Positions 1-4,968 of a stretch of 35,809 bases of DNA are shown piece by piece (position 1 is the stretch's first letter; every line of letters starts with the position of its first letter). This stretch comes from a virus (lineage: Duplodnaviria > Heunggongvirae > Uroviricota > Caudoviricetes), in the IMG/VR virus record IMGVR_UViG_2690316210_000007, positions 1 through 35,809 of that record; one strand, written 5' to 3'. The notes under the pieces were generated by a model. It saw nothing but the letters and a program-made list of their open reading frames with translations, ran no database searches and was not told the origin of the DNA. The position numbers were made by a program, and so were the translations under genes.

Positions 1-210
1 CCTGTTATCAGAGACTGCCAGCGTTGTGGTGGTCGTGGCTGTGAAAGACTACCATCAACGGAGGCATTTAATGCCATATGCAAAGTGACGAGTGCTATCA
101 CGCTTGATACGTGGAAAAAATCAGTGAAACGCTTTTACGATACGTTGGTGGTTCGGTTTGACATTGAAGAGGCATGGGCGGAGCGGCAGTTAAAGAGGGT
201 AACGCGATAG
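1..210 (+). CDS. Q: Late antiterminator Q (lambda Q family), C-terminal fragment; 5' end lies outside the window
   Basis: Frame-1 translation ...CQRCGGRGCERLPSTEAFNAICKVTSAITLDTWKKSVKRFYDTLVVRFDIEEAWAERQLKRVTR* (stop TAG 208-210) aligns by eye with the Cys-containing C-terminal region and tail of lambda Q (recalled ...CGRCKGVGYSRMPASAAYRAVTMLIPNLTQPTWSRTVKPLYDALVV...AVTR). A pR'-like sequence follows immediately. Confidence 0.7.
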   Translation, partial: PVIRDCQRCGGRGCERLPSTEAFNAICKVTSAITLDTWKKSVKRFYDTLVVRFDIEEAWAERQLKRVTR

Positions 211-211
211 T

Positions 212-250
212 GTTGTTGATTTTTCCCGAATCTGTGGTAAATTTGCTCTA
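212..250 (+). promoter_or_regulatory. Candidate late promoter pR' with Q-utilisation (qut) region
   Basis: Sequence tgttgttgatttttcccgaatctgtggtaaatttgctctaacgatggg resembles the recalled lambda pR' region (GGGTAAATTTGACTCAACGATGGGTTAAT). Candidate -10 TAAATT at 238-243 with a TTGA-type -35 about 17 bp upstream. Position directly after Q. Confidence 0.45.
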
Positions 251-290
251 ACGATGGGCGTTTTATGCCTGACGTTAGAAGATTTTTTAC

Positions 291-314
291 ACCCCGCCGC
301 CTGGCGGGTTTTTT
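291..314 (+). terminator. Candidate tR'-like intrinsic terminator (end of short pR' transcript)
   Basis: GC-rich hairpin cccgccgcc/tggcggg followed by T6 (accccgccgcctggcgggtttttt). Confidence 0.5.
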
Positions 315-436
315 ATGACTGAAATCGCGTCAGTACAGTAAACGCGCTGGTGGCGGTGAATACCTGTCTTTCAGCTTGCTGGCTTTTTCGACAAGAGTTA
401 TTGGTGTGTCACGTTAACCGGAAAAGGGAAAAAGAC

Positions 437-634
437 ATGCTAAAACAGCAGGATATGACAGAAACCGCCAGAGTAGTGTTTAATGAATTAAGCGTTACCG
501 AACCGGCGACAGTCGGGGAGATTGCACAGAATACTTACCTTTCACGCGAACGCTGCCAGTTAATACTGACCCAGCTGGTTATGGCGGGTCTGGCAGACTA
601 TCAGTTCGGTTGTTACAGACGCCTTCCGCAGTGA
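437..634 (+). CDS. Small hypothetical protein (65 aa), possibly helix-turn-helix
   Basis: ATG at 437 preceded by a purine-rich RBS (aaagggaaaaagac). Translation MLKQQDMTETARVVFNELSVTEPATVGEIAQNTYLSRERCQLILTQLVMAGLADYQFGCYRRLPQ; the segment TVGEIAQNTYLSRERCQLIL looks like an HTH. The ORF-track start at 350 is an upstream extension. Confidence 0.4.
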   Translation: MLKQQDMTETARVVFNELSVTEPATVGEIAQNTYLSRERCQLILTQLVMAGLADYQFGCYRRLPQ

Positions 635-784
635 AGGCTTTTTTATTTGTGGTAAATGGGCGGCTGGTGGGTGTTAGGGGCACCCACCAGCCATCTGCTC
701 ATGCGTTGGGTTCACAAGCAAACCTCAGGCCCACTGCTTTGCGCAAAAGCAGAATGAGCCTATCAGAGACAGGCTTAATGATCC

Positions 785-1834
785 ATGCTTAATACTGTAA
801 AAATATCCAGTTGTGAGTTAATCAACGCCGACTGCCTGGAATTTATCCGGTCGTTACCCGAAAATTCTGTTGACCTGATAGTCACGGACCCGCCGTACTT
901 TAAAGTGAAGCCTGAGGGCTGGGATAACCAGTGGAAGGGCGACGATGATTACCTGAAGTGGCTGGACCAGTGTCTGGCGCAGTTCTGGCGGGTGCTGAAA
1001 CCTGCCGGAAGTCTTTACCTGTTCTGTGGTCATCGCCTGGCATCTGATATCGAAATCATGATGCGTGAACGCTTCAGTGTGCTGAACCATATTATCTGGG
1101 CGAAGCCGTCCGGACGCTGGAACGGATGCAACAAGGAAAGCCTGCGGGCGTATTTCCCCGCCACAGAGCGCATTCTGTTCGCGGAACATTATCAGGGGCC
1201 GTATCGTCCGAAAGATGCCGGGTATGCGGCGAAGGGCAGTGCACTGAAACAGCATGTGATGGCCCCGCTGATTTCTTACTTTCGTGATGCGCGCGCGGCC
1301 CTGGGGATAACGGCAAAACAGATTGCAGATGCCACAGGAAAGAAAAACATGGTGTCGCACTGGTTCAGTGCCAGTCAGTGGCAGCTACCGAATGAAAGCG
1401 ATTATCTGAAATTACAGGCGCTGTTTGCCCGGGTGGCAGAAGAGAAGCATCGGCGTGGTGAACTGGAAAAGCTCCACCACCAGCTGGTGGATACGTATAC
1501 CTCACTGAACCGGCAGTATGCGGAGCTGCTGAGTGAATATAAACATCTGCGGCGGTATTTTGGCGTGACGGTGCAGGTGCCGTATACCGATGTGTGGACG
1601 CATAAACCGGTGCAGTTCTATCCCGGGAAACATCCGTGCGAAAAACCGGCAGAAATGCTGCAGCAGATAATCAGCGCAAGTAGCCGTCCTGGTGATCTGG
1701 TTGCGGATTTTTTCATGGGGTCGGGTTCAACGGTAAAAGCGGCGATGGCACTGGGGCGTCGTGCGATTGGTGTTGAGCTGGAGACCGGACGTTTTGAGCA
1801 GACAGTCAGGGAAGTTCAGGATTTAATCGTTTGA
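785..1834 (+). CDS. DNA amino-methyltransferase (N6-adenine or N4-cytosine), encoded in the late operon
   Basis: 349-aa ORF with DPPY motif IV near the N-terminus (DLIVTDPPYF) and an FxGxG AdoMet motif I near the C-terminus (DLVADFFMGSGST), i.e. beta-class motif order. Confidence 0.85.
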   Translation: MLNTVKISSCELINADCLEFIRSLPENSVDLIVTDPPYFKVKPEGWDNQWKGDDDYLKWLDQCLAQFWRVLKPAGSLYLFCGHRLASDIEIMMRERFSVLNHIIWAKPSGRWNGCNKESLRAYFPATERILFAEHYQGPYRPKDAGYAAKGSALKQHVMAPLISYFRDARAALGITAKQIADATGKKNMVSHWFSASQWQLPNESDYLKLQALFARVAEEKHRRGELEKLHHQLVDTYTSLNRQYAELLSEYKHLRRYFGVTVQVPYTDVWTHKPVQFYPGKHPCEKPAEMLQQIISASSRPGDLVADFFMGSGSTVKAAMALGRRAIGVELETGRFEQTVREVQDLIV

Positions 1835-1883: not shown

Positions 1884-1959
1884 GGCCCTTTAGCTCAGTG
1901 GTGAGAGCGAGCGACTCATAATCGCCAGGTCGCTGGTTCAAATCCAGCAAGGGCCACCA
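1884..1959 (+). tRNA. ileZ: tRNA with CAT anticodon (tRNA-Ile2 lysidine type or tRNA-Met), 76 nt with encoded CCA
   Basis: Cloverleaf read by hand: acceptor GGCCCTT/AAGGGCC, D-stem GCTC/GAGC, anticodon loop CTCATAA (CAT), T-arm GCTGG-TTCAAAT-CCAGC, discriminator A plus CCA. Stx-type lambdoid phages carry ileZ-argN-argO here; the ileZ symbol is by analogy only. Confidence 0.85.
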
Positions 1960-2059: not shown

Positions 2060-2136
2060 GCGTTGTTAGCTCAGCCGGACAGAGCAATTGCCTTCTAAGC
2101 AATCGGTCACTGGTTCGAATCCAGTACAACGCGCCA
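2060..2136 (+). tRNA. tRNA-Arg (anticodon TCT), 77 nt with encoded CCA
   Basis: Acceptor GCGTTGT/ACAACGC, D-stem GCTC/GAGC, anticodon stem ATTGC/GCAAT with loop CTTCTAA (TCT), T-arm ACTGG-TTCGAAT-CCAGT, discriminator G plus CCA. Confidence 0.85.
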
Positions 2137-3111: not shown

Positions 3112-4968
3112 ATGGCATTTAAACACTATGACGTGGTCAGGGCGGTATCGCCGTCAGACCTTGCGAAACGACTGACACAAAAACTGAAGGAGGGCTGGCA
3201 GCCGTTTGGTAGTCCGGTGGCCATAACCCCTTATACCCTGATGCAGGCGATTGCAGCAGAAGGTGATGTGGTGGTCAGTGGTGCAACTGAGCCGGATTGG
3301 TACTACGTCATCGTACTGGCCGGGCAGTCCAATGCCATGGCTTACGGTGAAGGGCTTCCGCTGCCGGATTCATACGATGCGCCCCATCCGCGCATTAAGC
3401 AACTGGCCCGTCGTAACACAGTGACTCCCGGTGGTGAAGTATGCGTATTTAACGACATCATTCCTGCTGACCATTGTCTGCATGATGTTCAGGATATGAG
3501 TACGATTAACCATCCCCGGGCTGACCTGAGCAAAGGGCAGTACGGCTGTGTCGGACAGGGCTTACATATTGCCAAAAAACTGCTTCCGTATATCCCTAAT
3601 AACGCGGGGATCCTGCTGGTACCATGCTGTCGTGGTGGTTCGGCATTCACCCAGGGCACGGAGGGGACATTCAGCGAGTCCACGGGGGCCAGTCAGGATT
3701 CGGCTCGCTGGGGAGTGGGTAAGCCGTTATATCAGGATCTGCTTTTCCGCACGAAGGCAGCATTGCAGAAAAACCCGAAAAACGTTTTGCTGGCGATATG
3801 CTGGATGCAGGGGGAATTCGATATGACGAATGCCAGTTACGCCCAGCAGCCAGCAGCATTTCTTGCAATGGTACAGCAGTTCCGTGCTGACCTTGCCGGG
3901 CTGGCGGCGCAGTGTCACGGTGGAAGTCCGGCATCAGTCCCCTGGATTTGTGGCGACACGACATACGCGTGGAAACAAGAACACGGTACGCAATATGAAG
4001 TGGTATATGGTGCATATAAAGGTAAAGAATCCCAGCAGATTTATTTTGTTCCCTTTATGACCGATGGTAGCGGAGTTAATACACCGACAAACAACCCGTC
4101 AGAAGATCCTGATATTGCCGGGTCTGGTTATTACGGTTCGGCATCCCGAACGAACAAAAACTGGGTATCATCAAATCGCCCGACGCATTTCAGCTCATGG
4201 GCGCGTCGTGGCATTATTCCCGATCGTATGGCAACTGCTATTCTGAACGTAGCCGGTCGCACCTTAGCCTTCATTAGTGGTAAGGCACCGGAAATCAAAC
4301 CCTCGCCCGGCGGCGACACTCCATCGGGGCCGTCTGATGGTGACACATCCGTTCGTACAGTCTCCCTGCTGCCGACAGCCGGAGAGGCTGCTGCGCAGGG
4401 CTGGACCATCACCGGCGGCAGTGTTGCGCTGGAAGATGGTGTGTTTAAGGTTACCAAGCAGAGCAATAAAACCTGGTCCCTGATGCATCCGGTGGATGAC
4501 GCAGTCTCCCTGCTGACACGGGGTGGCAGACTGAGCTGTAAGTTTCGACTGTCAGGCGCACTGACCAACAACCAGTTCGGTCTGGGAATTTATCTGTATA
4601 CCGATGTAGCGTTACCTGACGTCGTGGCGATGACCGGGACTGGTAACCCGTTCCTGATGTCGTTCTTCACCCAGACCACAGACGGCAAACTGAATCTGAT
4701 GCATCACAGGAAAGCAGGAAACACAAAGTTGGGCGAGTTCGGGAATTACAGTAACGACTGGCAGACGCTGGAGCTGGTGTTCACCGCCGGCAGTGCCACG
4801 GTTACTCCGAAACTGAATGGAGTGGCTGGCCCGGCATTCCAGGTCATAAAAGACAGTCTGACACTGGGGCTGAATGCGCTGACGCTGACGGATATTACCA
4901 AAAATGCAGCGTATGGCGTTGAGATAGAAAGTCTGGTGCTGGAGATAAATGCACCAGCATCATCATAA
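3112..4968 (+). CDS. nanS-p: Prophage sialate O-acetylesterase (nanS-p-like; SGNH/SASA-type esterase with C-terminal extension)
   Basis: 618-aa ORF with RBS ggagga before ATG 3112. Contains the GQSN esterase motif (VIVLAGQSNAMAYGEG). It sits between the tRNA/stx-equivalent region and the lysis cassette, as nanS-p homologues do in Stx and Stx-like prophages. Confidence 0.7.
   Translation: MAFKHYDVVRAVSPSDLAKRLTQKLKEGWQPFGSPVAITPYTLMQAIAAEGDVVVSGATEPDWYYVIVLAGQSNAMAYGEGLPLPDSYDAPHPRIKQLARRNTVTPGGEVCVFNDIIPADHCLHDVQDMSTINHPRADLSKGQYGCVGQGLHIAKKLLPYIPNNAGILLVPCCRGGSAFTQGTEGTFSESTGASQDSARWGVGKPLYQDLLFRTKAALQKNPKNVLLAICWMQGEFDMTNASYAQQPAAFLAMVQQFRADLAGLAAQCHGGSPASVPWICGDTTYAWKQEHGTQYEVVYGAYKGKESQQIYFVPFMTDGSGVNTPTNNPSEDPDIAGSGYYGSASRTNKNWVSSNRPTHFSSWARRGIIPDRMATAILNVAGRTLAFISGKAPEIKPSPGGDTPSGPSDGDTSVRTVSLLPTAGEAAAQGWTITGGSVALEDGVFKVTKQSNKTWSLMHPVDDAVSLLTRGGRLSCKFRLSGALTNNQFGLGIYLYTDVALPDVVAMTGTGNPFLMSFFTQTTDGKLNLMHHRKAGNTKLGEFGNYSNDWQTLELVFTAGSATVTPKLNGVAGPAFQVIKDSLTLGLNALTLTDITKNAAYGVEIESLVLEINAPASS

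Follow-up and report, generated by a model that had tools for sequence, protein, structure and literature searches.

A conserved structured element in front of an M.EcoGII-like methyltransferase gene in a lambda-like prophage: a candidate cis-antisense RNA

How does a prophage keep silent a gene whose product harms the cell that carries it? The question is raised by the virus record IMGVR_UViG_2690316210_000007 (Caudoviricetes), of which positions 1 to 35,809 were analysed; this whole stretch of 35,809 nucleotides (nt) is called here the window, and coordinates refer to it unless otherwise stated. Its segment 437-1834, the module under study, is a cargo module in the late operon of a lambda-like prophage and comprises a small open reading frame (ORF) of 65 amino acids (aa), named here ORF65, an intergenic spacer and the gene of a DNA methyltransferase. 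The enzyme itself adds little, since its family is already present in roughly 60% of complete Escherichia coli genomes. Since it is ~95% identical to the characterised methyltransferase M.EcoGII, the gene is already known, and the family, its location in prophages, its silence in lysogens and its presumed anti-restriction role have all been published. M.EcoGII is also a commercial reagent for chromatin-accessibility and proximity-labelling methods. The new information lies in the spacer, where a structured element stands in front of the gene and bears on how such a dangerous enzyme stays off.

The intergenic element and its conservation

Methyltransferase loci were gathered from one genome per species, and the ~130 nt preceding the methyltransferase ATG were sought in them by blastn. 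The element was found in nearly every locus whose methyltransferase is at least 70% identical, including loci without ORF65. Across 630 locus pairs it is 87% identical, to be compared with 49% at codon position 3 of the methyltransferase gene and 85% at positions 1+2. The element, ~140 nt long (649-787), is as conserved as codon positions 1+2 of the methyltransferase and is under strong purifying selection. When the module is aligned across four genera, the spacer contains long stretches without any change, whereas the coding DNA on either side varies at third positions. Homology begins abruptly at TGTGGAAATGGGC, always just after a hairpin of variable sequence with a U-rich tail. The two reading frames that cross the spacer (33 aa, 656-757, and 60 aa, 610-792) are ruled out as genes by single-base, frame-breaking indels between genera; the spacer is therefore non-coding.

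The element is present in some 50 loci, whose hosts range from E. coli to Vibrio and Acinetobacter, and lies almost always directly 5' of the methyltransferase gene or, in the distant ones, of a gene resembling com of phage Mu (see below). The same association holds among viral contigs: in 117 of the 120 that contain the core motif the methyltransferase gene follows directly, and in two more the locus runs off the contig. Furthermore, a covariance model built from these sequences recovered copies that were not used for training. They precede methyltransferases with an identity of only 41-58%, in Pseudocitrobacter, Vibrio sinus, Acinetobacter and a gammaproteobacterium that is unclassified; viral contigs yielded further copies. 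Two atypical loci were noticed. In contig IMGVR_UViG_2671180727_000005 (L108), the sole one of the 120 without a methyltransferase homologue despite 3 kb of downstream sequence, the element lies at ~2202. In Enterobacter sp. Bisph1 (L066, 1560-3300), the element (148 bits) and a truncated methyltransferase (residues 3-95, start codon lost) stand directly after a 416-aa ORF that resembles, by eye, isocitrate dehydrogenase; this locus looks like a prophage remnant.

The original prediction had noted two hairpins in the leader of the methyltransferase gene. Both exist, with coordinates shifted by one base and a first stem of 12 base pairs (bp) instead of 11. They do not stand alone in the leader: both are helices of a larger conserved element with several helices, and its pairing agrees better with the opposite strand. 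On the plus strand, the leader of the window folds with z = -4.65 relative to dinucleotide shuffles, none of 200 shuffles folding as well. Four helices, P0, Pa, Pb and Pc, were derived from RNAalifold and manual inspection (Table 1). In the MAFFT alignment 89.9% of the cells are paired, compared with at most 41% when the partners are slid, and nine pairs show double changes, compared with 3.9 +/- 0.9 in shuffles. In a diverse set of 32 sequences (alignment A8, fitted to the model), compensatory changes occur in 25 of the 29 pairs, against 10.2 +/- 1.8 in shuffled and at most 11 in slid controls. The outer pair of Pb, for instance, occurs as C-G, A-U, U-A and U-G, and in the distant copies that were not used for training all four helices are rebuilt from different sequence.

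A possible alternative helix, P0', overlaps P0 by two bases. It is 91-100% paired, with A-U in L266 and L273 and C-G in L068. One column of the alignment covaries with two possible partners, that of P0 or that of the AGGC/GCCU helix. This could correspond to a switch between alternative conformations or to a pseudoknot. A hairpin AUCAG/CUGAU before the AUG, which would sequester the start codon, was also considered and rejected, as U-to-C and U-to-G changes remain uncompensated in 15 sequences. A simpler interpretation of the conserved UGAUC in this region would be a weak sequence of Shine-Dalgarno type that is complementary to the 3' end of 16S rRNA.

The element matches no described RNA family in Rfam 15 and was not found in the literature searched. 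With permissive thresholds, the window gave no plus-strand Rfam hit at E <=10, and on the minus strand only a sub-threshold match to the Pseudomonas small RNA (sRNA) P26 (RF00630) at 661-725, driven by the AUGGCUGGUGG...CCACCAGCC hairpin. With 24.2 bits this match stays below the gathering score (36), and it leaves the first helix of P26 unformed (four non-pairs); hence the element is not a member of that family. Ten diverse copies of the element gave zero hits at the Rfam gathering thresholds. Neither the upstream winged-helix gene nor the terminators nor the conserved intergenic element is mentioned in the paper on M.EcoGII (PMC5778455), and the 2026 preprint on the Pas sRNA does not mention the methyltransferase. 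The StxS paper holds no data on the module, because the Sakai prophage Sp5 has only ~500 nt between tR' and stx2.

Strand of action of the element

On which strand does the element act? Watson-Crick pairing is equal on both. Read on the plus strand, the non-Watson-Crick cells are A.C in 88 cases and G.U in 17 in the model-fitted alignment, and 108 and 17, respectively, in the MAFFT alignment. An A.C cell of the plus strand becomes a G.U pair when the minus strand is read, so that pairing amounts to 96% on the minus strand and 88-90% on the plus strand. The energies point in the same direction: the RNAalifold core reaches -41.3 kcal/mol on the minus strand versus -26.7 kcal/mol on the plus strand, and the minus strand is the more stable in 31 of 32 single-sequence folds. 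Likewise, the z-scores against dinucleotide shuffles are more negative for the minus strand in all eight copies compared (-4.63 versus -2.53 in Vibrio, -4.12 versus -1.86 in Acinetobacter). Moreover, the minimum-energy folds of the minus strand reproduce the consensus architecture, whereas those of the plus strand are mutually inconsistent. Finally, the element would end on the minus strand with ...GCCCAUUUCCACA, or with CCCACUUUUUUCA in Pseudocitrobacter, the exact point where homology stops. What emerges is a conserved structure whose compensatory changes fit the strand opposite the target gene, as in a cis-antisense RNA. On balance we favour the reading that the minus strand of the element gives rise to a cis-antisense RNA which covers the ribosome-binding site of the methyltransferase, and we consider this probable, though by no means assured, from the comparative data.

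A further observation concerns the start of the coding region. Synonymous sites are nearly frozen in codons 1-15 of the methyltransferase gene (785-830), with a majority-codon fraction of 0.92 versus ~0.57 elsewhere. This points to an overlapping non-coding constraint, possibly an antisense promoter within the first 45 nt or a translation-initiation element. At a constant position beside the reverse complement of the start codon, weak minus-strand hexamers were spotted by eye. They read CTCACA-17-TATTAA in the window and TCAACA-16-TATTTT in most enterics, while two com-linked copies have TTGACA-15-TACTGT and TGGACA-15-TAATGT.

Several points weigh against the antisense reading. The frozen synonymous sites near the start codon could equally reflect constraints on translation initiation, and the candidate promoter hexamers, read by eye, match at only ~8/12 positions. 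Scans of the window, L050 and L216 detected no minus-strand promoter of at least 9/12 and no canonical minus-strand terminator, and the U-tract after P0 counts only 3 U in the enterobacterial copies. The covariation counts of the 32-sequence set come from an alignment fitted to the model; besides, most copies are highly conserved, so that statistical power rests on ~10 divergent sequences. None of six short strings of the element, taken on both strands, occurs in the Hfq-CRAC sRNA table and probe list of Tree et al. 2014, and no matching transcript is found in this table for E. coli O157 Sakai, a strain in whose prophages the presence of the module is not established.

A second reading places the element on the other strand, as a structured 5' leader of the methyltransferase mRNA that would affect translation, processing or stability, possibly through a switch between P0 and P0', which exclude each other. 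The plus strand folds well too (z from -3.8 to -4.65 in the window), and the equal Watson-Crick pairing suits either strand. The position of the element is in keeping with a leader, since it invariably stops where the unit's first ORF starts, be this the methyltransferase or a com-like gene, and is preceded by a plus-strand terminator; the column with two covarying partners is switch-like, and the scans that detected neither promoter nor terminator on the minus strand speak for a leader as well. However, a sense leader does not account for non-Watson-Crick cells that are five times more often A.C than G.U on its own strand, nor for an alignment-fold energy 15 kcal/mol worse than that of the minus strand together with inconsistent single-sequence folds. 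Furthermore, the last 35 nt before the AUG show no conserved plus-strand pairing, the AUCAG/CUGAU hairpin being broken there without compensation in the 15 sequences mentioned above. We therefore regard a sense leader as unlikely, yet as the most serious competitor of the antisense RNA.

Action as DNA, either as a protein-binding site or as a structure of the single-stranded minus DNA strand, is hardly credible: strand asymmetry alone is no proof of RNA, because G.T wobbles are favoured in single-stranded DNA too, but the helices are rebuilt from entirely different sequence in distant copies, which argues against a sequence-specific duplex binding site, the fixed position at the start codon fits control of expression, and we know of no stage at which this stretch of a lambdoid genome is persistently single-stranded.

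If the antisense reading is adopted, the module could work as follows. In a lysogen, the methyltransferase gene is expected to be transcriptionally silent, as it lies behind the late promoter pR', its terminator tR' and a second terminator (Table 1). The minus-strand RNA, with a predicted length of ~130-140 nt from near the methyltransferase ATG to ...GCCCAUUU, would cover the weak UGAUC ribosome-binding site and so suppress leaky translation of the host-toxic enzyme. After induction, the gene would be read only by Q-modified, terminator-resistant RNA polymerase, and the burst of late transcription would outrun the antisense RNA. The enzyme, judging from its family, would then hypermethylate the replicating phage DNA before packaging, and the progeny would gain broad protection, with no single recognition motif, from restriction enzymes that are blocked by N6-methyladenine (m6A).

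Such an RNA would be akin to lambda OOP, P22 sar, the antitoxin RNAs of hok/sok type and the antisense RNAs of restriction-modification systems: a structured RNA of ~130-140 nt would be fully complementary to both the ribosome-binding site and the 5' untranslated region of a gene that harms the host when its expression leaks. On the other hand, OOP, sar and Sok are simple stem-loops, whereas the element of the window is a three-way junction. It is conceivable, though we put it forward only tentatively, that the element stands for an undescribed family of structured antisense RNAs that silence non-specific adenine methyltransferases or Com-like activators in lysogeny, an RNA antitoxin acting on top of Q antitermination. 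If this were true, there would be a new RNA family and a concrete explanation for the silence of M.EcoGII and its close relative M.EcoGI in lysogens. The cargo of lambdoid late operons would be linked to the paradigm of Mu mom, a DNA-modification gene under multilayer control, and the proposal would be relevant to Shiga-toxin (Stx) phages that carry the module between pR' and stx2.

ORF65 and Com-like genes as candidate partners

The other candidate for a regulator is ORF65, which the original prediction had described as a small putative helix-turn-helix protein and a possible cognate regulator of the methyltransferase. ORF65 is a real gene under purifying selection: identity among 26 homologues amounts to 78% at codon positions 1+2 and to only 49% at position 3. 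Homologues number in the hundreds and occur in Escherichia, Salmonella, Klebsiella, Citrobacter and Buttiauxella. For the ATG at 437 as the start speak the invariant GGAAAAAGACATG and the non-triplet indels in the homologous DNA farther upstream; a 94-aa version starting from GTG 350 was rejected on these grounds, and the RefSeq annotation of the counterpart in E. coli ATCC 11775 is also a coding sequence of 198 nt (65 codons). E. coli, Klebsiella, Buttiauxella and Salmonella share a conserved non-coding block upstream of the gene, at 375-411 (CTTGCTGGC...ACAAGAGTTATTGGTGTGTCA), in which no hexamers resembled those of a sigma-70 promoter convincingly.

The protein matches PHROG_331 (E 1e-37) and bears the NCBI name 'TrmB family transcriptional regulator', yet the Pfam TrmB profile stays below threshold (18 bits versus a cut-off of 25.6) and no NCBIfam model matched. 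An AlphaFold2 model built with 22 homologues (pLDDT 92.2) predicts helices at residues 9-17, 26-33 and 37-49 and strands at 53-56 and 59-62, that is, a winged helix. Thus the helix-turn-helix assignment finds support in the predicted fold only, and an above-threshold TrmB match does not accompany it. Searched against PDB with Foldseek, the model retrieved only generic DNA-binding domains of OhrR/MarR and IclR (TMq 0.76-0.80) and winged-helix dimerisation domains of O-methyltransferases, with E ~1e-3. The idea of a DpnI-type winged helix that reads m6A was rejected, as the fold search returned only these generic domains.

Could ORF65 be a dedicated regulator of the methyltransferase, either a DNA-binding controller like a C protein or an RNA-binding activator of translation, as Com is in Mu? 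It keeps its place next to the methyltransferase, at a constant distance of 147-154 nt upstream, and it is present in 104 of the 111 viral contigs with room for it. Distant homologues precede distant methyltransferases in Pseudocitrobacter and Proteus, and possibly also in Vibrio, where an 85-aa ORF upstream of the methyltransferase is winged-helix-like by eye and has weak Pfam hits only; the modelled winged-helix fold would suit such a role. However, the two genes are separable in both directions: unrelated cargo replaces ORF65 in about 16 of 48 species-level loci, which retain both the element and the methyltransferase gene, and phage phiSTEC1575-Stx2k has the ORF65 protein without the methyltransferase. 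The role of cognate regulator is therefore unproven, and that part of the original prediction was not borne out. In addition, a terminator separates ORF65 from the methyltransferase, the fold matches are generic (E ~1e-3), and no operator-like repeat was identified. In Vibrio sinus, the winged-helix-like ORF and a Com-like gene coexist, which indicates that ORF65 does not replace Com. As for the C proteins of restriction-modification systems, these are Xre-type helix-turn-helix proteins linked to an endonuclease, whereas ORF65 is a predicted winged helix and no endonuclease gene is present in the module, whose neighbours are Q and tRNAs. A dedicated regulator is, in our estimate, distinctly unlikely; ORF65 is better described as a frequent but dispensable partner of the methyltransferase with a possible regulatory role.

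A different small gene accompanies the distant methyltransferases. There, an ORF with a Cys4 zinc ribbon lies directly upstream of the methyltransferase gene and usually overlaps its start (Table 1). The Pfam family Zn_ribbon_Com (PF10122) is matched above threshold by the ORFs of Acinetobacter (L068, E 8e-13) and Shewanella (L057, E 3e-8), while the two from Vibrio fall just below. In L064 and L068 the element stands immediately 5' of the com-like ORF. No com-like ORF is found at 635-784 of the window, where the element directly abuts the methyltransferase ATG. The com-mom arrangement is shared by Hia5 and Hin1523, non-specific methyltransferases of the alpha class that are linked to Com (Drozdz et al. 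2012, PMC3299994).

The likeness to Mu com-mom consists in a host-toxic, broad-spectrum, adenine-modifying enzyme that is expressed late and controlled by several layers; a Com-type ORF upstream of or overlapping the methyltransferase gene, like com with mom, is limited to the distant relatives. On the other hand, Mom is not a methyltransferase, and the enzyme of the window belongs to the beta class whereas Hia5-type enzymes are alpha-class. The control differs as well, presumably by Q antitermination in the window and by the C protein with Dam and OxyR in Mu.

We also observed beside some methyltransferase genes a 78-79-aa protein with several CxxC pairs (MGICSGCAKPL...CPEC...CPAC), encoded at 2558-2797 in L023 and L024 and at 4143-4379 in L056. 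It lies upstream of the methyltransferase in Kosakonia and in a contig labelled 'Vagococcus' and downstream in Proteus, and it matches no Pfam family significantly (one hit, E 0.1, far below the cut-off).

The methyltransferase and its late-operon setting

The 349-aa product of 785-1834 matches the Pfam family PF01555 (N6_N4_Mtase) over residues 29-340 (E 4e-43, 148.2 bits versus a cut-off of 26.7). DPPY at residues 35-38 (nt 887-898) precedes FMGSG at residues 310-314 (nt 1712-1726), which is the motif order of the beta class; the assignment as a beta-class amino-methyltransferase made in the original prediction is thus confirmed. The nearest solved structures (9c3u/8urk, M.RsrI and CcrM) are distant: their alignment is confined to the two conserved lobes, at E 1e-25 to 1e-17. 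Much closer is M.EcoGII, a 349-aa beta-class enzyme from a prophage of E. coli O104:H4 (C227-11), which converts adenine to m6A in any context, in DNA and also in RNA (Murray et al. 2018, PMC5778455). With the M.EcoGII sequence given in Table S1 of the SUPREM paper (PMC11551740), 331 of 350 positions are identical (~95%) and the length is the same. The enzyme of phage 1720a-02, which has been named 'very similar' to M.EcoGII (PMC5778455), is likewise 95% identical to that of the window. The catalytic and S-adenosylmethionine motifs are intact and no residue departs from the consensus shared by at least 90% of 35 homologues, so that there is no sign of decay. Of 5426 complete E. coli genomes, 3397 have a match to the region, as do many phages of the Stx2a, Stx2c and Stx2d types.

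Very probably, then, to judge from the protein sequence, the gene is an intact orthologue of the M.EcoGII and M.EcoGI genes placed within the logic of a lambda-like late operon. Three points weigh against this: the comparison sequence was machine-read from a PDF with visible artefacts (PMC11551740 Table S1), the ~16-18 substitutions that set the window copy apart from M.EcoGII fall mostly in the central, target-recognition region, and the Q-dependence of methyltransferase transcription is deduced from the order of the genes only.

M.EcoGII is silent in its lysogen, its constitutive expression makes cells sick, and the presumed role of its family is to shield phage DNA from restriction (PMC5778455). 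This agrees with the earlier proposal that the enzyme methylates progeny DNA and helps evade restriction. By analogy with M.EcoGII, the window copy would methylate adenine independently of context. A phage-specific motif had been expected, and its absence taken as refutation. Given the ~95% identity to a non-specific enzyme that methylates A in any context, no discrete motif is to be expected, and the absence of a motif becomes the expected positive result.

It is very improbable that the window copy is a sequence-specific enzyme with a discrete motif and a target-recognition region of different function. The differences from M.EcoGII do cluster at residues 148-254, the presumed target-recognition region, and among the publications examined biochemical characterisation is limited to M.EcoGII itself. 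However, M.EcoGI and M.EcoGII differ to the same degree (333 of 349 residues identical) and both are treated as non-specific by the authors (PMC5778455). Homologues at 92-93% identity are listed as 'nonspecific' in a REBASE-based table for O111 Shiga-toxin-producing E. coli, and no extra methylated motif was seen in the methylomes of the lysogens (PMC6602927). According to PMC11551740, even ancestral reconstructions far more divergent than the window copy remain non-site-specific.

The surroundings of the module follow the order of a lambda-type late operon, with Q, pR' with its promoter-proximal pause element, an intrinsic terminator and late genes on the same strand (Table 1). The C-terminus of Q is 40% identical to that of lambda. 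The sequence GGTAAATTTGCTCTAACGATGGG, 3' of the Q stop codon, aligns nearly base for base with lambda pR' (GGTAAATTTGACTCAACGATGGG), in which we take TAAATT to be the -10 hexamer and AACGAT the start and pause element at +1 to +6; the start is accordingly placed near 250. The pR' hexamers were assigned by reading the sequence and lie below the 9/12 threshold of the promoter scan. Downstream, all on the plus strand, follow a sialate-O-acetylesterase-type gene, lysozyme, Rz, Nu1, gpA and a lambda-type portal. The methyltransferase gene thus sits, as originally predicted, where only Q-antiterminated late transcription should reach, with Q, pR', tR' and a second terminator upstream and lysis and head genes downstream. 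The homologous locus of E. coli ATCC 11775 is annotated in the order RusA, antiterminator, 65-aa hypothetical protein, DNA methyltransferase, three tRNAs, holin, lysozyme and terminase. The pair of ORF65 and methyltransferase gene also stands behind four different Q families, in the genera Klebsiella, Buttiauxella and Salmonella.

The terminator-like hairpin at the end of ORF65 had not been noted in the original prediction. In ~40 of 52 loci, some of which lack ORF65, a counterpart with a U-rich tail precedes the conserved element by 5-8 nt. The stem shows compensatory changes.

Table 1. Coordinates of the module, of the helices of its element and of neighbouring features; the Com-like reading frames are numbered in their own loci
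Feature	Position	Strand	Basis or description
Q antiterminator gene, 3' end	1-210	+	last 69 codons; Pfam Antiterm PF03589, E 1e-17
Lambda-type late promoter pR'	215-255	+	-35 TTGATT 215-220, -10 TAAATT 238-243, AACGAT 250-255
tR' intrinsic terminator	293-315	+	CCCGCC-gcct-GGCGGG-T6; terminator scan, inverted repeat, alignment to lambda tR' T-run
ORF65, predicted 65-aa winged-helix protein	437-634	+	ATG at 437, stop ends 634
Second terminator-like hairpin	621-645	+	GCCTTC-cgcagt-GAAGGC-T6AT; terminator scan; overlaps ORF65 stop codon
Structured non-coding element	649-787	- (favoured)	conservation, covariation, strand tests
Helix P0	657-661/729-733		UGGGC/GCCCA; closes three-way junction
Helix Pa	662-673/681-692		12-bp perfect stem, 7-nt loop; first hairpin of the original prediction
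Helix Pb	696-703/713-720		nGCUCAUG/CACAAGCn
Helix Pc	734-740/746-752		7 bp; second hairpin of the original prediction
Additional hairpin	757-775	-	
Possible alternative helix P0'	727-730/758-761		AGGC/GCCU; alignment A8 columns 93-96/129-132
Methyltransferase gene	785-1834	+	349 aa; Pfam PF01555
tRNA(CAT)	1884-1959	+	annotated tRNA-Ile in relatives; ARAGORN, Rfam tRNA, homologous E. coli locus
tRNA-Arg(TCT)	2060-2136	+	ARAGORN, Rfam tRNA
Mu Com-like ORFs	L064 2829-2939; L068 2820-3008; L057 2877-3044; L058 2880-3041		Vibrio, Acinetobacter, Shewanella relatives

Some minor observations were made along the late region. The spacing from pR' to tR' (250-315) predicts a terminated transcript of only ~65 nt; the 6S RNA of lambda measures 194 nt. 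Homology to the late regions of Stx phages starts exactly at the terminator, at position 293. Two tRNA genes were called in the window, to be compared with three tightly spaced ones (Ile, Arg, Arg) in close relatives, and the 100 nt between them (1960-2059) may represent an argN-type gene that has decayed or been replaced. The STnc100 sRNA family is represented by two full copies in tandem (2212-2402 and 2680-2889, 136 and 161 bits), which lie between the tRNAs and the esterase gene. A third match, at 2441-2614, is sub-threshold (30.1 bits versus a gathering score of 47), and a terminator-like site lies on the minus strand at 2918-2897. Finally, 3112-4968 encodes a late-region cargo protein of 618 aa with DUF1737, a sialic-acid-specific acetylesterase (SASA) domain and DUF6645, which we presume to be an esterase of the NanS-p type, as in Stx and other lambdoid prophages.

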